This document shows positions 2,561 to 50,359 of a stretch of 64,000 nt of DNA, piece after piece. A program made the position numbers and the translations under genes. Position 1 is the first letter of the stretch; the number at the start of each line of letters is the position of its first letter. Below the pieces are notes generated by a model. It saw only the letters and a list, made by a program, of their open reading frames with translations. It was not told the DNA's origin and made no database searches. The DNA is from an uncultured Candidatus Saccharibacteria bacterium (lineage in GTDB: Bacteria; Patescibacteriota; Minisyncoccia; UBA6257), in the NCBI GenBank assembly GCA_964479005.1, contig CAYZJA010000001.1:80642-144641 (forward strand). The letters run 5' to 3'.

Positions 2561-2781
2561 TTGCTTTCACTCCTTCTTTTTTCTCTTTTTATTAGATTTT
2601 AAGATGTCAATATGCTATTTGTATAAGATGATACCATTAATTATAATAAAGGTCAAGTTCGTAAAAGGTAAAAATTAATGGAATATAAAATAATAGTTAG
2701 ACTTTCTAATGTATTAGATTTTTGAAAAATCTGGTATAATTGAAAAGGTCGTTAACATTAATAAATAATTCTTAATAAATT

Positions 2782-3060
2782 ATGGCAGAAGTTATTAAAA
2801 AAAATGGAATGAAAGAACCATTTGATCCTGAAAAAATTAAAAAATCAATTGCTGGTGCTGCTCAACAGGCTGATGTCCCAGAAGAGAGAAAAGACGAAGT
2901 AGTATATGAAGTGGCAGGAACAGTAATCCCTATGTTTGAAGGTAAAGAGGAAATTGATACAAGTGATATTAAGAAAGCTATTCTTAGTGAGTTGGATAGG
3001 GTTGAACCGGCTGTAGCTAGTGCTTGGAGAAAATATGAGGAAGGTAAAAGGAAAGTTTAA
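2782..3060 (+). CDS. stand-alone ATP-cone domain protein
   Basis: VIKKNGMKEPFDPEKIKKSI... is the canonical start of ATP-cone domains (NrdR / RNR regulatory domain). Confidence 0.5.
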   Translation: MAEVIKKNGMKEPFDPEKIKKSIAGAAQQADVPEERKDEVVYEVAGTVIPMFEGKEEIDTSDIKKAILSELDRVEPAVASAWRKYEEGKRKV

Positions 3061-3257
3061 TAAAGAAGGATGAAAGGCGTCCCAATGGGGCGCTTTTCAA
3101 TTTAGGTAAAAAAGAAATTAAAGTAATCTTTATTATCTATTACTTTTTCTACTTTTTAATTCCTTTATTAGCTAAGATATTAATTATATTATATACTTAT
3201 ATATAATTTTAATAAACTAATCTTTATAAAAAGCTAAAAATTAAGGGAGAATTTATT

Positions 3258-3464
3258 ATGGAATGTCAAAAAGAAGAAAATTTAAAAAGTTGTCCTTGTA
3301 CTTATCCTGATTGTCCAAGAAAAGGCATTTGTTGTGAGTGTATAAAATATCATTTGGCGCGCAATGAATTGCCAGCTTGTTGTTTTTCAAAGGAAGCAGA
3401 AAAGACTTTTGATCGTTCCTTTGAAATGTTTATTAAAAATCAAAAAGGCAAATTGAAAGAATAG
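3258..3464 (+). CDS. Cys-rich small protein, putative metal-binding
   Basis: 10 Cys in 68 aa: CPCTYPDCPRKGICCECIKYH...ACC. Confidence 0.45.
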   Translation: MECQKEENLKSCPCTYPDCPRKGICCECIKYHLARNELPACCFSKEAEKTFDRSFEMFIKNQKGKLKE

Positions 3465-3533
3465 AGAAGATAATAAGCATTTTATGTTAAAATATATTAA
3501 AAGGTCGGAAATTAATTAAAGAAATTAAATACT

Positions 3534-3698
3534 ATGAAAAAAGAATTTCCTTATCAAATTCATATGGCCCTTGGACTCATTTGGCTTTTTGTTGGGGTAG
3601 TTTTTCATTCAGGAATTGAGTTAGCTATTTGGGTCGCTGGAGGATTAGTGATGGTAACAATTGGTTTTTTAAACAAAAAAGGCAAAGAAAATCATTAG
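3534..3698 (+). CDS. small membrane protein (54 aa), not in the supplied ORF track
   Basis: ATG at 3534 sits 33 nt downstream of an AAAAGGTCGG motif. Encodes MKKEFPYQIHMALGLIWLFVGVVFHSGIELAIWVAGGLVMVTIGF, two TM helices, stop TAG at 3696. Confidence 0.35.
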   Translation: MKKEFPYQIHMALGLIWLFVGVVFHSGIELAIWVAGGLVMVTIGFLNKKGKENH

Positions 3699-3721
3699 TA
3701 GGTAAAAATAGTAAAAATAAT

Positions 3722-3943
3722 ATGAATAATAAAATCTTAAAAGCCCTAAGAGAAGATTTAATTGGGGAATTAGGGGCTATTAATCAATATCAGGAGCATA
3801 TTGATGAAATTGATGATGAAGAGGCCAAAAAAGTATTAAGTCATATTAGAGATGATGAAAAAGAGCATGTCGCTGAGTTAATTAAGATAATTAGAAAATT
3901 AGATACTACACAGGAAGAAAAGTTCCAGAAAGAAGAGCTCTAA
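3722..3943 (+). CDS. ferritin-like / rubrerythrin-like four-helix-bundle small protein; start moved to internal ATG 3722
   Basis: ELGAINQYQEHID...DDEKEHVAELI gives paired E...ExxH helices typical of ferritin-like diiron folds. The upstream part of ORF 3629 overlaps the small membrane ORF. Confidence 0.35.
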   Translation: MNNKILKALREDLIGELGAINQYQEHIDEIDDEEAKKVLSHIRDDEKEHVAELIKIIRKLDTTQEEKFQKEEL

Positions 3944-4251: not shown

Positions 4252-5253
4252 ATGAAGAAAGGAAGTAATATTAATAAAGGCGAGATTGTTATTTATCGTC
4301 CCAAAAGTGGTGAAGTTGAAGTAAAAGTTAAATTGGAGAAAGAAACAATTTGGTTAACGCAAGCGCAAATTGCTTCACTTTTTGGTACAAAAAGACCAGC
4401 AATTACCAAGCACCTTAGTAATATTTTTAAAAGCGGGGAATTAGATAAAAATTCAGTATGTTCCATTTTGGAACATACTGCCGCTGATGGAAAAACGTAT
4501 AAAACCAAGTTTTATAATTTAGACATAATTATTTCTGTTGGCTATAGAGTGAATTCTAAAAGAGCGACACAGTTTAGGGTTTGGGCAACAAGAGTTTTAA
4601 AACAGCATATTCTTCAGGGTTACACCATTAATCAAAGGCGTTTATTAGAAACCAGGTCCAAGTTTAAAGAATTGCAGAATGCCATTGCTTTTTTACGGGA
4701 AAAATCAAGCAAGAAAACACTTAAAGGACAGGAAAAAGAGATATTAGATTTATTAGGTAATTATGCTAAAACACTGACTATTTTAAGGCAGTATGATAAA
4801 GGAAGAGTGCGGAAGTCAAAGGGTATGGAGGCTAAGTTTGTTTTAAGATATGATAATTGCAAGAATATTATCGTTGTATTAAAGAAAAATTTAATAGCAG
4901 AAAAAAAGGCTAGTGGTTTTTTTGGCGTTGAGACTGAAAGTAAATTTGAAGGTATAGCTAAAAATTTATACCAGACATTTGATAGAAAAATATTGTATAA
5001 AACTATTGAGGAAAAAGCAGCGCATTTACTTTACTTTACTATTAAAGATCATCCATTTGTAGATGGTAACAAGCGAATTGCTTCGTTTTTGTTTGTTTAT
5101 TTCTTAGATAAAAATGATTATCTTTATCGTAAGAATGGTGAGAAGAAAATAAATGATAATGCTTTAGTTGCTTTAGCTCTCTTGGTTGCAGTAAGTGATT
5201 CTAAAGAAAAAGATATTTTGATTAAAATAATCATAAATCTTATAAATACTTAA
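4252..5253 (+). CDS. RhuM-family virulence protein fused to a Fic/Doc domain
   Basis: N-terminus (IWLTQAQIASLFGTKRPAITKHL...YNLDIIISVGYRVNSKRATQFRVWATRVL) is RhuM-like. C-terminal HPFVDGNKRIASFL matches the Fic motif HPFx(D/E)GNGR. Confidence 0.75.
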   Translation: MKKGSNINKGEIVIYRPKSGEVEVKVKLEKETIWLTQAQIASLFGTKRPAITKHLSNIFKSGELDKNSVCSILEHTAADGKTYKTKFYNLDIIISVGYRVNSKRATQFRVWATRVLKQHILQGYTINQRRLLETRSKFKELQNAIAFLREKSSKKTLKGQEKEILDLLGNYAKTLTILRQYDKGRVRKSKGMEAKFVLRYDNCKNIIVVLKKNLIAEKKASGFFGVETESKFEGIAKNLYQTFDRKILYKTIEEKAAHLLYFTIKDHPFVDGNKRIASFLFVYFLDKNDYLYRKNGEKKINDNALVALALLVAVSDSKEKDILIKIIINLINT

Positions 5254-5285
5254 TTTTTAAATTTAAAAAGATAATTAATAAAAAT

Positions 5286-5999
5286 ATGAAATTAGATAAA
5301 AAAGTAGCTTTAGTAACAGGCGGTTCAAATGGCATTGGAAAAGCTATTGCCCAGAGATTTTTAGATGAAGGAGCAAAGGTTATAATCTTTGATATTGTAA
5401 AACCAGATTATGATGTGAATTTTTATAAAGTTGATATAAGTAAAGAGGAACAAATCAGAAAAGCGTTTGAGAAAATTGAAGAATTAGATATTGTTGTTAA
5501 TAACGCTGGAATTTATTTTCAAGCATCTGTTGAAGAAACATCAGGCGAACAATTAGACAAAATGATGGATGTAAACTTTAAAGGAGCATATTTGATTTCT
5601 AAATACGCGCTTCCTTTGGTTAGAAAAAACAAAGGAAATATTATCAATATTTCTTCTGCCATTGGAATTGCACCTGAGCCAGGATCTCCAGCTTATTGTT
5701 CATCTAAAGCAGCGATAATAATGCTTACTAAATGTATGGCTCAGGAATATGCTGCAGAAGGAATAAGAGTAAATGTGATATTACCAGGACCTATAGATAC
5801 TCCATTATTGAGAAGAGTTCTTTCTTCTGATGAAGCGATTCATAAGTATGCTGAGTTAAATCCCATGAGAAGAATTGGAAAACCTCAAGATGTTGCAAAT
5901 GTGGCAGTCTTTTTGGCTTCAGATGAAGCAGGTTATGTAACTGGTGGAATATATTCAGTGGATGGCGGAGAATCCAGTTCTAGCCGATATTCAAAATAA
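5286..5999 (+). CDS. short-chain dehydrogenase/reductase (SDR) family oxidoreductase
   Basis: TGGSNGIGKAIA Rossmann motif, NNAG, catalytic S...YCSSK. Confidence 0.85.
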   Translation: MKLDKKVALVTGGSNGIGKAIAQRFLDEGAKVIIFDIVKPDYDVNFYKVDISKEEQIRKAFEKIEELDIVVNNAGIYFQASVEETSGEQLDKMMDVNFKGAYLISKYALPLVRKNKGNIINISSAIGIAPEPGSPAYCSSKAAIIMLTKCMAQEYAAEGIRVNVILPGPIDTPLLRRVLSSDEAIHKYAELNPMRRIGKPQDVANVAVFLASDEAGYVTGGIYSVDGGESSSSRYSK

Positions 6000-6046
6000 G
6001 AACCTGCTTCGCAGAACCTTGTTTTTCATTTCATTCAAAATAACAA

Positions 6047-6424
6047 TTGAAAAATATTATGCTTAAATTAACAATTTTTGAAGCATTATTGATTACCCAC
6101 GTTCTAGTAGATTGGATATTTCAATGGAAGTGGGAGGCGATGAATAAATCTAAAAAATGGTTGCCTTTATTTTTTCATTGCGCAGTTTATACAATAGGTT
6201 TTATTCCAGTGTTTTTGATATATAAAATTAATTTAATTTGGTTAATTTTATTGTTTGTTTCTCATGTTGTTTTTGACAGACGGAAATTTGAGGTATGGTT
6301 GTTAGAAAGTTTTAAGGGAATCACCAAAAAAGACACACCCGAATCTCTTTGGAGGATATTGTTGATTGGAACTGACCAAATTTTACATATTGTAATTTTA
6401 ACATTGGTAGTTATATTTAATTAA
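6047..6424 (+). CDS. integral membrane protein (DUF3307-like)
   Basis: Four hydrophobic segments with conserved His/Asp (HVLVDWIFQ, FHCAVY, SHVVFD). Confidence 0.35.
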   Translation: MKNIMLKLTIFEALLITHVLVDWIFQWKWEAMNKSKKWLPLFFHCAVYTIGFIPVFLIYKINLIWLILLFVSHVVFDRRKFEVWLLESFKGITKKDTPESLWRILLIGTDQILHIVILTLVVIFN

Positions 6425-40518: not shown

Positions 40519-40526
40519 TCTATTGA

Positions 40527-40943
40527 CGATTGAACCTATAAGCCGAATTCTGTATCCTGTTAAACAGGACGATAGTCATTTATCTAGCCCTGAAATTACT
40601 CTCAGGGTCAAGCGGCCACTTTCTGACAAATGTCAGAACACGAGCCTTGCACCCAGTAAGGATTTAGCCGTTTCATTCTTGAAATTGCTTTCAAGACTCA
40701 CCCTAATTAAAAAATAATTAGGGTGTTTTGAACTTTTCAGTTCAAAACGTCTCTGTTCGCACCTCTATTCCAGTTGTAAATCCGTCATTAGCGTTACCGC
40801 TAAGAGGCAAAAACTGGAGCGATAGCTGTTAGCTATTACCTTTTACCAACTTTGTTTTAGGCAAAATTGGTGGTGTTCGGACTTTCCTCCCCGCCTAAGT
40901 TTTGCGAACAAAATTTTGGCGGGGTAACTACCCAGTTCAATCG
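40527..40943 (-). ncRNA. rnpB: RNase P RNA (bacterial type A-like)
   Basis: Minus strand reads CGAUUGAAC (P1)...UUACCCCGCC-loop-GGCGGGG (P3)...AGGAAAGUCCGAACACC (P4 5' strand)...AGGGUGA...ACAGAAUUCGGCUUAUAGG (P4 3' strand)...GUUCAAUCG (P1). Confidence 0.85.
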
Positions 40944-44310: not shown

Positions 44311-46081
44311 GAATATTAGAAATTTTGTTATAATTGCGCATATAGATCATGGTAAGTCTACTTTGGCTGATAGATTTTTGGAAATAACAAATACTATTTC
44401 CCAGAATAAACTAACACCACAATACTTGGATGGGATGGCTTTAGAAAAAGAACACGGGATTACTATTAAAATGCATCCTGTTCAGATGAATTATAATGGT
44501 TTTATTTTAAATCTTATCGATACTCCCGGTCATGTAGATTTTACTTATGAAGTTTCCCGCGCTTTAGCTGCTGTAGAAGGGGCTATATTATTAGTTGATG
44601 GTATTCAAGGGATTCAAGCGCAGACACTTTCTAATCTCCAATTAGCTAAGGAGCAAAAATTGAAAATTATTGGCGCTATTAATAAGATTGATTTAGATAT
44701 TCATGATTTAGAAAACAGGAAAAAAGAACTAGCAGATTTATTAAATATAACAAGTGATGATATTATTCTTGTTTCTGCTAAGACAGGTGAAAATGTGGAT
44801 TTATTATTGAAAAAAATCATTTCTGAGATTCCTGAACCAGTTATTAATGAAAAATTACCTTTTCGCGCTTTAATTTTTGATTCCCATTATGATTATTATA
44901 AAGGAGTAATAGCTTATGTTCGCGTTGTAGAAGGTGAAATTAAAAAAAGGGAAAAGATTATTTTTGCTGCAAGTAAAACAAAAGGTGATATTGTAGATTT
45001 GGGTTATTTTGCTCCAGAATTAAGACCAAAGGAAAGCTTGAAATCTGGAGAAATAGGATGGATAGCCACTGGTTTAAAAAATCCAGGATTAGTGAGAGTG
45101 GGTGATACAATAACCAAAAAACTGCCAATAGAGATTTTGCCAGGATATAAAGAACCAAAACCAATGGTATTTGCCGGTTTCTATTTGGCTAAAGGTGGTC
45201 AGGATTTTGAGAATTTTCGTTATTCTTTATCCCAATTAAAATTAAATGATTCTGCTATCTATTTTATTCCCGAAAATTCGGAAGTATTGGGAAGAGGTTA
45301 TCGTTTAGGATTTTTAGGAATGTTGCACTTAAAAATTACACAAGAGCGGCTTAAAGATGAATATGGGTTAGATTTGATTATTACTCATCCCACTGTACCG
45401 TACAAAGTTTTGTTAAAAGGCGATAAGGCGCCAAAGATTATTACTAATCCAAGTAAATGGCCACTTTCAGATGAAATTCTTTATTGTGAAGAACCTTGGG
45501 CAAAAATGGAAATTATCACACCTTTAGAATATTTATCAGTAATTTTGAAACTTATTAACGACTCTCGTGGTCAGGATATAAATACGCTTAGTCTTTCAGA
45601 TAGGCTGATAATTACTTGCCAGATTCCTTTAGAAGAGGTCATCAAAGATTTTTATGATAATTTAAAATCTATCTCTTCGGGATATGCTTCTTTAAATTAT
45701 GAAATATCTGGATATAAAAAGACTCAATTAGAAAAATTGGAAGTAATTTTAGCGGGAAAAACATTCCAAAGTTTGTCTAGAATAATTTTTGAAAAAAAGG
45801 CAGAAAAGGAAGCTAGGAGTTTGGCCTTAAAACTTAAAAAGATTCTATTACGCCAGAATTATCCAGTTTCTATTCAGGTAAGAGCGTTTGGGAGAATTGT
45901 TGCCAGGGAAACTTTATCAGCGTTAAAAAAGGATGTGACGGCAGGCCTTTATGGAGGCGATAGAACAAGAAAGATAAAAGTTTTGAAAAGACAACAAAAA
46001 GGAAAAAAAAGATTGTTGGATAAAGCTAATCTTCAGGTTCCCCCAGAAGTTTTTCTTAAGATTTTTTCTAAATCCGATTAA
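44294..46081 (+). CDS. lepA: elongation factor 4 (LepA)
   Basis: IRNFVIIAHIDHGKSTLADRFLEIT...DTPGHVDFTYEV...NKIDL; LepA C-terminal domain. Confidence 0.95.
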   Translation: MEQKNKNIRNFVIIAHIDHGKSTLADRFLEITNTISQNKLTPQYLDGMALEKEHGITIKMHPVQMNYNGFILNLIDTPGHVDFTYEVSRALAAVEGAILLVDGIQGIQAQTLSNLQLAKEQKLKIIGAINKIDLDIHDLENRKKELADLLNITSDDIILVSAKTGENVDLLLKKIISEIPEPVINEKLPFRALIFDSHYDYYKGVIAYVRVVEGEIKKREKIIFAASKTKGDIVDLGYFAPELRPKESLKSGEIGWIATGLKNPGLVRVGDTITKKLPIEILPGYKEPKPMVFAGFYLAKGGQDFENFRYSLSQLKLNDSAIYFIPENSEVLGRGYRLGFLGMLHLKITQERLKDEYGLDLIITHPTVPYKVLLKGDKAPKIITNPSKWPLSDEILYCEEPWAKMEIITPLEYLSVILKLINDSRGQDINTLSLSDRLIITCQIPLEEVIKDFYDNLKSISSGYASLNYEISGYKKTQLEKLEVILAGKTFQSLSRIIFEKKAEKEARSLALKLKKILLRQNYPVSIQVRAFGRIVARETLSALKKDVTAGLYGGDRTRKIKVLKRQQKGKKRLLDKANLQVPPEVFLKIFSKSD

Positions 46082-46090
46082 AATTAAAAT

Positions 46091-46483
46091 ATGAAAAAAT
46101 TATTATTGATTATAATTAGTTTAGCTCTTATTCTTCTCTTTTCATCAAGGATTAGGGAGGATTTGCAGACATATCGATTATTAACTGATGAAGTAAAAAG
46201 CCTAGAGCAAACAAAAGGCAATATTGAAAAAGAGAGGGAAAAGACTGAGCAACTTTTGGAAAAGGAAAAGCAAGAAGAGACACTTGAGCAGGCAGCGCGT
46301 TTAATGTTAGGACTTAAAAAAAGCGGGGAAGAAGTTATAATGATTTTACCTCCTAAAAATTCTTCTGATTCCGAACTTCAAATTAGTACTTCTTCTGATG
46401 TTTTACCTGAAAAATCTTTTAATTCCTTTTTTTCCAAAATTTCTCAAATTTGGTATAATTTAATAAGAAAATTAAAAAAATAG
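46091..46483 (+). CDS. FtsB/DivIC-like septum formation initiator (TM + coiled coil)
   Basis: TM anchor, coiled coil, then EQAARLMLGLKKSGEEVIMI like the FtsB C-terminal motif. Confidence 0.4.
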   Translation: MKKLLLIIISLALILLFSSRIREDLQTYRLLTDEVKSLEQTKGNIEKEREKTEQLLEKEKQEETLEQAARLMLGLKKSGEEVIMILPPKNSSDSELQISTSSDVLPEKSFNSFFSKISQIWYNLIRKLKK

Positions 46484-46488
46484 ACGTT

Positions 46489-46695
46489 GCGGGCATCGTA
46501 TAGTGGCAGTACGTAACCTTCCCAAGCCCCCACACCAAACGAGTATCATTGCGAGATTAGTATAGTGGTAGTACATCACCTTCCCAAGGTGAAGGTGCCG
46601 GTCCGATTCCGGTATCTCGCTCCGTTTAAAATTTAAAATACTCGTTGTGGTGTGGGGGCAAGGTTAAAGTGTGGGTTCGATTCCCATTGTCCGCT
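46489..46695 (+). tRNA. tRNA-Gly(CCC) gene interrupted in the anticodon loop by a 136-nt insert (5' half 46489-46525, 3' half 46662-46695)
   Basis: GCGGGCA-TC-GTAT-AGTGGCA-GTAC-G-TAACC-TTCCCAA // GGTTA-AAGT-GTGGG-TTCGATT-CCCAT-TGTCCGC-T. All stems pair. The junction is ambiguous across a 3-nt AAG direct repeat. Confidence 0.6.
46551..46621 (+). tRNA. second tRNA-Gly(CCC)-like gene nested inside the insert; atypical T-loop TCCGATT
   Basis: GCGAGAT-TA-GTAT-AGTGGTA-GTAC-A-TCACC-TTCCCAA-GGTGA-AGGT-GCCGG-TCCGATT-CCGGT-ATCTCGC-T. Flanked by 20-bp inverted repeats at 46527-46546 and 46638-46658. Confidence 0.6.
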
Positions 46696-46778
46696 CAAAT
46701 TATTTTTTCGTTACTATCCAAAAAGATTGACGAAGTTTCAAGTGCAATATGGTTTTGTATAATCTTTTTACATTGCTC

Positions 46779-46807
46779 TTGACAAATAGTTTTACATCGC
46801 ATATACT
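46779..46807 (+). promoter_or_regulatory. sigma70-like promoter TTGACA-N17-TATACT, with a second TGTATAAT -10 at 46757-46764, for the accessory operon
   Basis: cttgacaaatagttttacatcgcatatact. Confidence 0.55.
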
Positions 46808-46848
46808 GGAGTTAGGTCGTAATAATTAACTATTTCATCACCAAAGCT

Positions 46849-47136
46849 ATGGCTACAAAAAAATTTAGTCCAACAAGAACAATAACGCAAAAAAACCTCG
46901 AAAATGTACCTGGCGACAAGCCAGGTGTCTATCGCATCAAAAACGCGTCAAATGATATTCTTTACATAGGTAAAGCAAAAGGAGGTAGATTAGATGACAG
47001 AATCGCTGAACATAAAGGACAATTCCAAGGTGGAACGAAATTCCAGTATAGATTAACTCACAGCAAAGATGCCGCCGAGCGATTAGAGCGTAAAGAAATT
47101 CGTGAATGGAAACCGCCTAGAAATAAAGATAAATAA
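46849..47136 (+). CDS. small stand-alone GIY-YIG nuclease-domain protein
   Basis: KPGVYRIKNASNDILYIGKAKGGRLDDRIAEH...ERKEIREWKPPRN has GIY/YIG, Arg and Glu positions. Confidence 0.6.
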   Translation: MATKKFSPTRTITQKNLENVPGDKPGVYRIKNASNDILYIGKAKGGRLDDRIAEHKGQFQGGTKFQYRLTHSKDAAERLERKEIREWKPPRNKDK

Positions 47137-47139
47137 TTT

Positions 47140-47625
47140 ATGCCCTCTTCGTTAAAAACATACGCGAGCATAGAAGACATCAATAGAATTTATATGAGGG
47201 CTAATGCGCATAGTCTTACCGAAAGAATTAATAAGGATAGTGGTCTTGAACAAGATGTTTTATACATAGAAGCCTTTTTATTGCAAGCAACGTTATTGGA
47301 AGGCGTTCTTGTTAATCTTGGTCTAAGATTATTAGAAAGCAAAAAAGAATTAACTGGGCTTAAAGGTAAAAGATACGTTAAATATGGTTATGATAATGCG
47401 ATCAATGATTTATATTTAATGAATGCGATAAAAACAAAAGAGTTTAATTTATTAGAGAAATATAAATCAAAAAGAAATAAGTATATTCATAATCTATTGT
47501 CAAAAAATACGGAGTGTATAGAAAATGAGGTTTTGGATATTCATAATCAGTATAAAGATTTTGTTTGGAAAATGATAAAAAAATTGGGGAGATTAGAGAA
47601 AAAAAGATTAAGTAAAAAAAAATAA
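47140..47625 (+). CDS. HEPN-like hypothetical protein (RNxxxH motif)
   Basis: KRNKYIHNLL matches Rx4H in a helical context; no other homology recognised. Confidence 0.3.
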   Translation: MPSSLKTYASIEDINRIYMRANAHSLTERINKDSGLEQDVLYIEAFLLQATLLEGVLVNLGLRLLESKKELTGLKGKRYVKYGYDNAINDLYLMNAIKTKEFNLLEKYKSKRNKYIHNLLSKNTECIENEVLDIHNQYKDFVWKMIKKLGRLEKKRLSKKK

Positions 47626-47629
47626 AACT

Positions 47630-48406
47630 GTGCTTACAAAATTTATTCAAAAATTGCGAAAAAAGAATAATATGACGCAGGAATTTTTGGCGTCCGAGTT
47701 GAATATCTCTCGTCCTACTTATGTTCAAATAGAACAAGGCGAACGGGATTTAACTATCACCGAAGCGGAAAAACTAGCTTCTATTTTTGGAATTTCTTTT
47801 GAAGATTTTAGACATGGAAAAGATTCTTCAATTACCGCAAAAATTGAAAAGAATAAAATCAAACCAAAAATAGGAAAACAAGAGATAAGAATTAACGTCC
47901 CGCAAAAAAATCTTAAAAAATTTAAGGAAGTTTTACTTTATGTTTTGTCAAAAGTCGGCGGTAAATCAAATGTCGGCGAAGCGGTATTATATAAACTGCT
48001 TTATTTTATTGATTTTGATTTTTACGAAAAATTTGAGGAACAATTGATTGGCGCGACATATATTAAAAATCATTATGGGCCAACTCCTGTTGAGTTTAAA
48101 GCTATTATTGGCAATATGATTCAAAACGATGAAGTCGTAAAAGTTGAGGGAAAATATTTTAATTATCCACAAAGAAAATATCTGCCAGTTAGACGGCCAG
48201 ATCTTAATGTTTTATCTGGACGAGAGATAGAACATATTGATGATGTTTTGGCGCGTCTTGCTGATAAAAATGCTAAAGAAATGGAAAATTACTCCCATGA
48301 AGATATTCCGTGGAAAACGGCGGAAAATGGCAAACCACTTTCCTACGAAAGTGTTTTTTATCGTGACGAACGTTATTCTGTAAGAAATTATGAAGACGAA
48401 CTTTAA
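47630..48406 (+). CDS. XRE-family HTH fused to a Panacea (DUF4065) domain; putative antitoxin
   Basis: N-terminal MTQEFLASELNISRPTYVQIEQGERDLTITEAEKLASIFG (HTH_XRE). C-terminal AVLYKLLYFIDFDFYEKFEEQLIGATYIKNHYGPTPVEF matches the Panacea core. Confidence 0.55.
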   Translation: MLTKFIQKLRKKNNMTQEFLASELNISRPTYVQIEQGERDLTITEAEKLASIFGISFEDFRHGKDSSITAKIEKNKIKPKIGKQEIRINVPQKNLKKFKEVLLYVLSKVGGKSNVGEAVLYKLLYFIDFDFYEKFEEQLIGATYIKNHYGPTPVEFKAIIGNMIQNDEVVKVEGKYFNYPQRKYLPVRRPDLNVLSGREIEHIDDVLARLADKNAKEMENYSHEDIPWKTAENGKPLSYESVFYRDERYSVRNYEDEL

Positions 48407-48725
48407 TGAACTATCTGAATTTTCTAAGGAATTTAAGCGGTTTTCAAAAAAATATAAATCGTTATATGATGACTTAGAAGAGTTTAAGCGCATCGTTGAT
48501 GTTGTACCATTAGGAAATAGCAAGCATTTTAATATTATTACACAAAACGAGCAATGCACCGTTATTAAGGCTCGTTTCTTTTGTCGTTATTTAAAACACT
48601 CTTCTTTAAGGATTATCTACGCTTTTTACAGCCAAAATTGTAAAATTGAGTTTATTGAGATATATTTTAAAGGCGAAAAAAATAATGAGGATCGCGAGAG
48701 AATCAAAGATTACTTGAAAGATTAA
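48390..48725 (+). CDS. RelE/ParE-superfamily type II toxin-like protein
   Basis: 111 aa, overlaps the upstream gene by 17 nt. ...RIIYAFYSQNCKIEFIEIYFKGEK resembles the RelE/YafQ C-terminal beta-strands. Confidence 0.45.
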   Translation: MKTNFNELSEFSKEFKRFSKKYKSLYDDLEEFKRIVDVVPLGNSKHFNIITQNEQCTVIKARFFCRYLKHSSLRIIYAFYSQNCKIEFIEIYFKGEKNNEDRERIKDYLKD

Positions 48726-48734
48726 AAATAGATT

Positions 48735-49202
48735 TTGTTATTCTCTCACAGAAAATTTATGGATAAAAGAATAATCAGGGAAAAATTGGATTTAATCAGA
48801 GGAGAAGTTATCTCATCCGCCACAAGAGTTGAGTTCGTTCTCGGCTATCGCTTAAGAAGGTATTTTTTTCCTAAAAGTAATAATAAAGCAACAATTCTTT
48901 TTTGGAATGTTATGAATACTCCTTACCTTACTTTTGATAATAAAATTAGTATTTATGAATCAATACCTTATTTTAAAAAATTGAAAGGTTATCCTACTAT
49001 TAAAAAATCTTTGAGATTTGTTCAGAGGTTGAGAAATACAATGGCTCATTGGGATTTAGATGAAAAGAAAAGCGATCTTAAAAATATTTTTATGTTCACA
49101 TTAGTTGGGAAATATAGAAAAATAACAATTAACGATAACTTGATTGAAAATTATAGAAAACAGATTACTTTTCTTCTAAAAAAATTTGGTTATAGTAGAT
49201 GA
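48735..49202 (+). CDS. short Abi_2 (AbiD/AbiF)-like HEPN protein
   Basis: VQRLRNTMAHWD matches the RNxxAH HEPN motif of Abi_2 family proteins. Confidence 0.4.
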   Translation: MLFSHRKFMDKRIIREKLDLIRGEVISSATRVEFVLGYRLRRYFFPKSNNKATILFWNVMNTPYLTFDNKISIYESIPYFKKLKGYPTIKKSLRFVQRLRNTMAHWDLDEKKSDLKNIFMFTLVGKYRKITINDNLIENYRKQITFLLKKFGYSR

Positions 49203-49276
49203 AGCTTGACGAGGGATTATCTATTTAGATGAAATCTTTTTTGTTTTCTCACTCTTATCTTAAAAAGATAATATAC

Positions 49277-50359
49277 TCAAATTATTCTTCCGCCGCCTAA
49301 GCATTTATCCTTTTGATAAAATACAGCAAATTGACCTGGGCAGGGAGCAAAGACGCCTTTTTTAAAGATAATCTTTAATTTTCTTTTTTCTGGAATTAAA
49401 CAAGCTTGCGATAGTTTTTGTTGATAGCGGGTTTTAACTTGCGCATGAATAGATTTTATCATTCTTTTTCCTGAAATCAAATGATATGGAAAAACAAACA
49501 GCTCTTTTTTATAAAGAGTTTTCTTATTTTTAGTAACAAAAAGTGTGTTTTTATTCTTATCCCAGCCTGCTACAAAATATGGACCCCCAGATAATTTTAT
49601 ACCTTTTCGTTGGCCTAAAGTAAAAAAATGTAGCCCTTGATGTTTAGTCAGTATATTTCCTTTTAAATCTAAAACTGGTCCTTGTTTTTCACCAACCTTT
49701 TCTTTAAGAAAGGGACAAACTGATTGGCCAGCAACAAAGCAGAAATCTTGGCTTTGTTTTTTCTTAATAAAAAATTTGAAACCTTGCTTTTTAGCAATTT
49801 TATATATGTCTTTTTTTATATAATTTGCTAATGGAAAAATAATATGAGCAAGATATTTTTGTGGTAATAAGCATAAATTATATGATTGGTCTTTATTTTT
49901 ATCTCGCGCTTTTAAAAGCTCATATTTTTTGGTTCTATTGTTTAATCTGAGTCGCGCATAGTGGCCAGTGGCGATATATTGAATCTTGTGTTTTCTTGCC
50001 CATTGCAATAACTGTTTAAATTTAAAATTAGGGTTACAAATAACGCAGGGGTTTGGAGTTCTTAGATTTTTCCATTCGGAAATAAAATAATCAACAACTT
50101 CTTTTTGAAAATCTTTTCTGGCATCTATAATATAGTAGGGGACATCTAGTTTTTTGCAAATGTTCTTGGCGATTTTCAAAGACTCCTTAGTGCAAAAAGG
50201 GTTTTCTTTAAAAGGATTTAATTTGTTTTGCCAGATAGGTAGTTTTAAAGAAACGCCAATTGGGTTCCACCCTTGCTTTTTTAATAATATTAAAGCCATG
50301 GAAGAATCTATTCCACCTGACATTCCAACAACAATTTTTTTACCCTTACCTAATTCCAT
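49277..50359 (-). CDS. mnmA: tRNA-specific 2-thiouridylase
   Basis: KKIVVGMSGGIDSSMA PP-loop; catalytic Cys region. Confidence 0.9.
   Translation of the reverse strand: MELGKGKKIVVGMSGGIDSSMALILLKKQGWNPIGVSLKLPIWQNKLNPFKENPFCTKESLKIAKNICKKLDVPYYIIDARKDFQKEVVDYFISEWKNLRTPNPCVICNPNFKFKQLLQWARKHKIQYIATGHYARLRLNNRTKKYELLKARDKNKDQSYNLCLLPQKYLAHIIFPLANYIKKDIYKIAKKQGFKFFIKKKQSQDFCFVAGQSVCPFLKEKVGEKQGPVLDLKGNILTKHQGLHFFTLGQRKGIKLSGGPYFVAGWDKNKNTLFVTKNKKTLYKKELFVFPYHLISGKRMIKSIHAQVKTRYQQKLSQACLIPEKRKLKIIFKKGVFAPCPGQFAVFYQKDKCLGGGRII

Follow-up and report, generated by a model that had tools for sequence, protein, structure and literature searches.

Do five small genes packed head to tail beside a tRNA locus form one composite defence system, or a stack of unrelated parts? 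The question is raised by a locus in an uncultured Candidatus Saccharibacteria bacterium, lying within a stretch of 64,000 nt (GenBank assembly GCA_964479005.1, contig CAYZJA010000001.1, positions 80,642–144,641, forward strand), which we call the window. A first-pass annotation made from the sequence alone had read the genes, here named g1 to g5, as a composite abortive-infection/toxin–antitoxin (TA) module of a GIY-YIG nuclease, a HEPN-like protein, an XRE-type HTH protein with a Panacea (DUF4065) domain (g3, panA), a RelE/ParE-like toxin and an Abi_2-like HEPN protein. The five same-strand open reading frames (ORFs) are present where it had placed them (Table 1), and the packing is tight, with true gaps of 3, 4 and 9 nt in place of the coordinate differences that it had given as spacings, and with the 17-nt overlap of g3 and g4 borne out. 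To judge from the neighbourhoods of their homologues, the five packed genes appear to be three separate evolutionary units, namely g3–g4, g1–g2 and g5, i.e. a modular stack and not one system, and the locus is a variant of the known PanAT kind of module rather than a five-gene system of its own.

At the centre of the locus is the g3–g4 pair. The g3 product matches HTH_3 (E = 2.7e-15, 56.6 bits) well above threshold and, over residues 120–229, SocA_Panacea (PF13274; E = 1.7e-17, 64.8 bits with a cut-off of 25.7 bits), and with both matches far past threshold its domain assignment is secure. A scan of one genome per species with the g4 family gave 80 loci, which were checked by tblastn with all five proteins, and a metagenome scan with the g2 family gave 31, together 111. 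In 78 of the 80 species-level loci a g3 homologue lies directly upstream of, and overlaps, the g4 homologue (by 13–17 nt in loci other than this one), so that the mark by which PanAT pairs are recognized, a partner gene at a distance below 100 nt in at least two species, is found here. The pair usually occurs without the other cassette genes, in hosts from more than 12 phyla including Patescibacteria, Brocadiales, Elusimicrobiota, Actinomycetota, Omnitrophota, Gamma- and Deltaproteobacteria, Nitrospirales and Spirochaetota. The adjacency and overlap agree with the first-pass view of a Panacea–HTH gene and a small overlapping gene as a type II TA-like core; by all appearances g3–g4 is such a core, of the PanAT kind and with an unannotated toxin family, in which g4 would be toxic and PanA would neutralize it.

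HTH–Panacea antitoxins are known to pair with dozens of unrelated toxins, and many Panacea antitoxins carry an HTH at the N-terminus (PMC8832971), and the Panacea domain has been proposed as a sensor (PMC10440598). The g3–g4 pair resembles these PanAT systems (Kurata et al. 2022, PMC8832971; Ernits et al. 2023, PMC10440598) in its N-terminal HTH, its tight bicistronic layout with a small unrelated partner, its patchy and horizontally spread distribution and its accessory third genes, nucleases among them, such as the Panacea survey had noted (PMC8832971), but differs in that the family of its g4 partner has no annotated domain. That survey left out operons of more than three genes, and hence a four-gene form with GIY-YIG and HEPN genes would have gone unscored (PMC8832971); in those of its supplements that were searched, GIY-YIG, HEPN and four accessions of the g4 family are absent.

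The g4 family is large, with 1115 homologues, none of which carries a Pfam domain, and its basic residues K60, R74, K94 and R104 are invariant. The RelE/ParE-like nature first ascribed to it is unproven: Pfam, NCBIfam, PDB profiles, hhalign and fold searches all failed to verify it. Scans of Pfam and NCBIfam taken down to E ≤ 1 gave no match to g4, PDB sequence and profile searches gave chance-level matches only, and across 21 diverse family members we obtained only single faint matches, to YafQ (0.012) and to a ParE-like profile (0.013). When the family was compared by hhalign with approximate RelE-family reference sequences, the probabilities were weak, 17–23% for HigB2 and 1–2% for RelE, and count as a lead only. 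PHROG returned one match, to an unnamed family. The structural model was poor (predicted local distance difference test score, pLDDT, of 54, from a shallow alignment), and two fold searches on such a model were uninformative. As leads only, the predicted secondary structure of two helices, five strands and one helix is compatible with the RelE fold, and RelE appears in the names of two JGI homologues and one UniRef homologue.

Among the relatives of the pair, one Patescibacteria locus (L083) carries two divergent PanA–toxin copies 1.5 kb apart (2645–3764 and 5250–6333), which are 53% and 60% identical with the window in g3 and 33% and 63% in g4, with a tRNA-Ser just 5′ of the first. Four loci (L099, L103, L104 and L105) hold degraded copies in which the toxin gene is truncated (to residues 1–68 in L104 and 39–76 in L105) or split, and in L103 panA is partial as well. 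These degraded copies suggest that the pair decays frequently.

The upstream genes are tied to this core by a conserved operator-promoter. The first-pass annotation had placed a TTGACA-N17-TATACT promoter upstream of g1, and this site (46779–46807; 11/12 matches) is indeed the best sigma-70-like site in 46000–50000. In the window the elements run TGTATAAT-N-TTTTTACAT-N5-TTGACAA-N5-TTTTACAT-N4-TATACT, and across the family TGTATAAc-N-TTTACAT-N5-TTGACAA-N-TTTACAT-N4-TAtAcT. The same arrangement precedes g1 in 18 distinct four-gene loci, and in 51 two-gene loci it immediately precedes panA, the distance from the boxes to panA being approximately 800 nt in the former and 3–60 nt in most of the latter, from which it follows that g1–g2 fill the space between a PanA-type promoter and panA. 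The TTTACAT boxes would be bound by the HTH domain of PanA. In a term search of the two PanAT papers (PMC8832971 and PMC10440598), a leader cargo slot, a TTTACAT operator-promoter and an intragenic hairpin of the kind described below were not found.

Of the two genes in this slot, g1 matches GIY-YIG (PF01541; E = 6.6e-6, 26.8 bits, above the cut-off of 22.6 bits) and also DUF7508 (PF24348; 26.0 bits, equal to its cut-off), a family unmentioned in the literature searched. Its homologues (22 distinct sequences) keep GVYRI, LY[IV]G.AK, R47, EH55, E80/E83 and N92, with Y28, Y39, H55 and E83 invariant and R47, E80 and N92 nearly so. Taking the catalytic residues to be those of the UvrC/I-TevI pattern, the set is as expected of an active GIY-YIG core, and the original naming of g1 as a GIY-YIG protein holds. 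The possibility that g1 is a mislabelled nucleotidyltransferase, as in HEPN-MNT systems, was ruled out by the GIY-YIG match with its catalytic residues.

The g2 product has a helical-bundle HEPN fold according to structure prediction and fold search, its nearest structures being the HEPN toxins of HEPN-MNT systems, and R112-N113-x3-H117 is invariant in 35 sequences, which contains the conserved Rx4-6H motif; the HEPN-like label given to it at first is thus supported by both structure and residues. Direct scans of Pfam, NCBIfam, PADLOC and PHROG gave no useful match to g2, and PDB sequence and profile searches yielded chance-level matches only. It does not belong with HEPN-MNT (HepT/MntA): its neighbour is a GIY-YIG protein and not a nucleotidyltransferase, its motif, RNKYIHNL, lacks the Tyr at H+2 of the HepT RX4HXY signature, and sequence similarity is undetectable.

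The linkage of these genes to each other and to the core is strong. In the metagenome scan g1 is immediately 5′ of g2 in 27/27 loci having upstream sequence, and g3 (with g4 where the sequence reaches) is immediately 3′ of g2 in 28/30, which supports the earlier proposal that the GIY-YIG gene and the first HEPN gene are co-conserved with the TA core. The g1–g4 order, which recurs in dozens of independent contigs and is more than chance, is found in at least four other flanking contexts, namely GmrSD, HATPase/DUF4325 (L014), UvrB and a type III-like restriction–modification (RM) system, at identities of 63–78% (g1), 46–53% (g2), 59–72% (g3) and 34–51% (g4). Seen from the core, g1–g2 accompanies g3–g4 in just three of 78 species-scan loci (L046, L060 and L071). 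On the evidence of these neighbourhoods, the GIY-YIG and HEPN genes appear to be a real, conserved and optional cargo pair in the leader slot. Three-component TA operons (paaR-paaA-parE, TA–chaperone and mazEF-mazG) likewise join a TA pair and a conserved accessory gene in one operon, whereas here the accessory, placed 5′ of the antitoxin gene, is a two-gene nuclease unit that other small genes can replace and that most members lack.

So absolute a linkage could also mean that g1–g2 is a self-contained second TA-like pair, of a HEPN toxin and a GIY-YIG-fold neutralizer or modifier, stacked in tandem with PanAT. The nearest structures of g2 point the same way, being those of HEPN-MNT toxins, whose antitoxin gene is likewise directly upstream, as does the occurrence of g1–g2 outside PanAT loci in two contigs. 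In one of these (L130, 5707–6432) the intact pair adjoins a 137-aa Cys-rich protein, downstream of an opposite-strand LexA-like/methyltransferase fusion, and in the other (L134, 2–310) g2 adjoins a 235-aa protein of an unnamed family with the PanA–toxin pair absent. Set against this, in 28/30 loci the pair sits downstream of a PanA-type promoter and only 4–50 nt before panA, g1 retains a full GIY-YIG catalytic set that would not be expected of a mere binder, and both the nucleotidyltransferase and the HepT RX4HXY motif are missing; we consider a stacked second pair rather unlikely.

The slot also holds other genes. A 70-aa HNH protein (PF01844; E = 1e-5) occupies it in L026, L048 and L098, and remnants of it are seen in L044, L049 and L079; a DUF2188 protein (E = 1.4e-20) is found in L028, L039 and L040 only; a 100-aa protein that matches GIY-YIG faintly is present in L048 and L084, and in part in L068; and L070 has a 108-aa protein of an unnamed family. 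In other genomes the slot is empty or contains remnants of g2. An upstream ‘MANYHVS...’ sequence in Brocadia (L047, L052, L053, L055, L087 and L091) was considered as a further DUF2188 cargo and rejected, as it is a longer N-terminus of PanA. The g2 gene is frameshifted in L109, L132, L133 and L136, and in L027, L078 and L045 the promoter is joined to its last 12–30 codons, fusions which show that deletion has turned some four-gene loci into two-gene ones. Together, the exchanged contents, remnants and frameshifts indicate a cargo that is optional, exchangeable and often lost.

Such turnover, in a slot that is filled in a minority of loci, is what might be seen if g1–g2 and the HNH and GIY-like slot genes were selfish or hitch-hiking nucleases for which the PanAT leader is a landing site both safe and expressed, with no role in TA function and perhaps driving the spread of the cassette. 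HNH and GIY-YIG are two classic families of free-standing homing endonucleases, and the cassette behaves as mobile, with target duplications of 17–197 bp in loci devoid of a recombinase. However, these proteins are only 70–100 aa long and are without the DNA-binding domains to which homing enzymes owe their site specificity, g1 is strictly paired with a HEPN protein for which a homing enzyme has no need, no other protein of the cassette is as well conserved as g1 (63–92% identity), and the DUF2188 cargo is not a nuclease. On balance we regard selfish nucleases as unlikely. The role of the cargo may be that of extra effectors, of a stacked TA pair or of selfish nucleases.

Within panA, close to its 3′ end, lies a hairpin followed by a T-run, which is the sole terminator-like site in 46000–50000. 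An equivalent hairpin and T-run is found in 60 of 84 non-redundant loci (71%), compared with an expectation of 11.5% after synonymous-codon randomization using each gene's own codon usage and of 2.7% after plain shuffling. In addition, where Ile/Leu-Asp replaces Leu-Ser in the encoded peptide, the opposite arm has TCG in place of AGY as its Ser codon, by which the pairing is kept. We put this hairpin forward as a candidate attenuator or partial terminator, which would limit read-through into the toxin gene.

The last gene, g5, has a different history. All 120 of its homologues listed are approximately 147 aa long, and in five unrelated contexts the DNA homology begins at the ATG at 48759, so that the start is most likely there, 33 nt after g4, and the product 147 aa in place of the 155 aa first assigned. 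The family comprises 182 homologues at 72–100% identity in several phyla, with R-N-x-M-A/S-H-W invariant, and an exhaustive profile search returned just 74 cluster representatives. In 56 of these diverse relatives R92 and H97 never vary and N93 is conserved to at least 90%, and thus the Rx4-6H motif is present; weak matches in this set were to HEPN_RiboL-PSP (seven), HEPN_MAE_28990 (four), Abi_2 (three), pEK499_p136 (two) and one each to Csm6_HEPN, Cthe2314, Apea and DUF4145, with a best E overall of 2e-4.

The first-pass annotation had called g5 Abi_2-like because of its RNxxAH motif, which it ascribed to the AbiD/AbiF proteins. The motif stands, but the membership does not: g5 itself has no match to PF07751 at E ≤ 1, the three distant relatives match it weakly (best E = 1.1e-3), and g5 forms a highly conserved 147-aa family of its own across phyla. 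Abi_2 proteins are, moreover, about twice the size of g5. Pfam, NCBIfam, PADLOC and PHROG gave no useful match to g5, and PDB sequence and profile searches gave chance-level matches only. The sum of these comparisons lends some support to g5 as a HEPN protein at the superfamily level and none to it as an Abi_2 protein. It is also distinct from g2, as a profile–profile comparison of the two families aligned the RN..H motif only, with a probability of 1.2%, which makes them separate HEPN families.

Homologues of g5 are always 3′ of some other operon. Their contexts include AbiEii with an SMC-like ATPase; a controller/Dcm/R.HinP1I/Vsr operon followed by TIR; a TIR–TIR pair beside a Gabija-like locus; a 235-aa protein of an unnamed family; an ABC transporter in a type IV secretion system (T4SS) region; and HATPase_c_3/methyltransferase/ResIII. 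The gene overlaps Vsr by 16 nt in L137 and begins 4 nt after a TIR gene in L143. At the DNA level, five contexts show approximately 80% identity from the ATG at 48759 to the stop codon with unrelated flanks, and homology bounded by the ORF in this way links window positions 48759–49202 with L005, L137, L140, L143, L147 and L155, from unrelated phyla. Stand-alone HEPN genes in RM operons have been described, with DUF4145 listed as a HEPN family (Anantharaman et al. 2013, PMC3710099), and g5, as a small HEPN-motif protein that ends RM, TIR and AbiE operons, is alike to these stand-alone RM/Abi genes; the terms GIY-YIG and DUF4065 are absent from that paper (PMC3710099). In two Zixibacteria-type contigs the g5 homologue shares 4 nt at its start with a 49-aa ORF (L007, 89–238; L008, 106–255), of which the window has no counterpart.

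If all five genes were one integrated composite abortive-infection/TA system acquired as a unit, as first proposed, the tight packing, the single strong promoter, the lack of any detected internal terminator other than the panA hairpin and a 17-nt imperfect direct repeat that encloses all five genes would be well explained. The neighbourhood data largely refute this view, as g5 is found in 0/111 loci carrying g4 or g2 homologues, lies elsewhere behind RM/Vsr, TIR, AbiEii, ABC-transporter and methyltransferase operons, and has homology ending at its own start and stop codons, and as g3–g4 stands alone in most genomes. What survives of the composite module is the co-conservation of g1–g4, and a single five-gene unit is in our view very improbable. 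As far as genomic context can tell, g5 is evolutionarily independent of g1–g4.

We consider the best explanation to be a PanAT core with nuclease cargo in its leader slot and g5 as a rider, a multi-part working model that we hold to be probable by a small measure. In this model PanA would both neutralize the g4 product and repress the operon, by way of the pair of TTTACAT boxes on either side of the −35 element, and the hairpin and T-run at the end of panA would probably trim read-through into the toxin gene, leaving the antitoxin in excess. Placed in the slot, g1–g2 would be transcribed only when repression by PanA is lifted. Titration, degradation or triggering of PanA, e.g. by phage infection, would free the toxin, and the de-repressed promoter would add a sudden supply of enzymes that cut DNA and RNA, with growth arrest or abortive infection as the result. 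The g5 gene would have landed at the 3′ end of the operon, as it has behind RM, TIR and AbiE operons, and is here probably expressed by read-through.

Several observations weigh against the PanAT-with-cargo model. The pair g1–g2 occurs twice outside PanAT loci (L130 and L134) and so may work alone, and the presence of cargo in a minority of loci, often in decay, also fits dispensable or selfish genes. The label of g4 as a presumed toxin comes from its position and conservation, with no recognizable toxin domain and a poor model. PADLOC models match none of g2, g4 and g5, and g3 in its HTH region only. Searches of plasmid and phage collections for relatives of g4, and of IMG/VR viral contigs for relatives of g4, g5 and g2, found none. 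Finally, co-transcription of g5 is assumed solely from the lack of a detected promoter or terminator between g4 and g5.

The flanks of the cassette bear on how it moves. As had been noted at the outset, a tRNA gene is adjacent upstream, an intact tRNA-Gly(CCC) at 46551–46623, and such proximity is a recurrent feature of the cassette family: nine of 95 non-redundant loci have a tRNA gene no farther than approximately 300–430 nt from the cassette ends, 3.3 times the density of farther flanks (Poisson P ~0.002). The two flanks of the same locus share at least 16/17 nt in five of 72 loci and in 0/144 mismatched pairs. When extended, these matches are direct repeats that duplicate the target. The longest, of 197 bp, is in L093 (4884–5080/6395–6591); those in L059 (5041–5087/6369–6415; 47 bp) and L058 (17 bp) copy the 5′ end of the gene downstream and the 3′ end of tRNA-Asn, respectively, and L051 and L078 have repeats of 24 and 19 bp. 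Between the repeats there is no recombinase in any of the five, just a promoter and two genes. In the window the imperfect 17-nt repeat (family D7; 15/17 identical) brackets the promoter and all five genes, although on its own it is not significant, 15/17 being reached in five of 144 control pairs. It could be that the PanA–toxin pair is the chassis of a small recombinase-less mobile cassette with target duplications of variable length, often by tRNAs, and with an exchangeable mini-nuclease slot, the nucleases serving as extra effectors in a multi-effector abortive infection or as break-makers for spread; we think this decidedly doubtful.

Table 1. Features of the g1–g5 locus, in window coordinates
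Feature	Position	Strand	Description
Direct repeat, left copy CTCAAATTATTTTTTCG	46694–46710	.	17 nt; begins in last 4 nt of split tRNA-Gly 3′ half; possible insertion boundary
Operator-promoter	46756–46807	+	Promoter scan; conserved architecture
TGTATAAT box	46756–46763	+	Operator-promoter
TTTTTACAT box 1 (TTTACAT type)	46765–46773	+	Operator-promoter
−35 TTGACA	46779–46784	+	Promoter scan
TTTTACAT box 2 (TTTACAT type)	46790–46797	+	Operator-promoter
−10 TATACT	46802–46807	+	Promoter scan
g1	46849–47136	+	95 aa, minimal GIY-YIG nuclease domain with an additional DUF7508 match
g2	47140–47625	+	161-aa minimal HEPN-fold protein, putative RNase
g3 (panA)	47630–48406	+	258 aa, XRE-type HTH fused to Panacea (DUF4065) antitoxin domain
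Hairpin CACTTTC-CTAC-GAAAGTG + TTTTTT	48336–48359	+	Within panA 3′ end, 30 nt before toxin start codon
g4	48390–48725	+	111 aa, cognate PanA partner and presumed toxin (PanT), unannotated family
g5	48759–49202 (ORF from 48735)	+	147-aa stand-alone putative HEPN-superfamily gene, 155 aa as ORF
Direct repeat, right copy CTCAAATTATTCTTCCG	49276–49292	.	Covers mnmA stop codon (minus strand)

The locus bears on how Panacea modules gain functions and move between genomes, and it offers a testable architecture of a conserved operator-promoter, an exchangeable nuclease slot, a hairpin that possibly sets the toxin:antitoxin ratio and target duplications free of a recombinase. Three unannotated families emerge from it as well, the presumed toxin g4, the HEPN partner of GIY-YIG (g2) and the 147-aa stand-alone HEPN (g5), mostly from uncultured lineages (candidate phyla radiation, CPR, and groundwater phyla) that are poorly charted for defence systems. 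The basic picture of TA biology would change only if the cargo nucleases turned out to be effectors or to serve in mobility.

Beyond the cassette, g1–g5 were located by sequence match in a JGI metagenome contig of 551,616 bp, between lepA/divIC and mnmA/nifU/nifS, and a sharp anomaly in the base composition of the region was not seen. Upstream, at 46487–46697, there is a second tRNA-Gly(CCC)-like gene, split in the anticodon loop into a 5′ half (~46489–46526) and a 3′ half (~46657–46697) by an insert of approximately 130 nt, the ends of which form a 19–20 nt inverted repeat (cccccacaccaaacgagta/tactcgttgtggtgtggggg) and which contains the intact tRNA-Gly(CCC). When joined in silico the two halves fold as a cloverleaf that ARAGORN calls tRNA-Gly(CCC); Rfam finds the inner tRNA only. 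The window also contains, at 40523–40943 on the minus strand and unrelated to the cassette, a bacterial RNase P class A RNA scoring 110 bits against a gathering score of 100.

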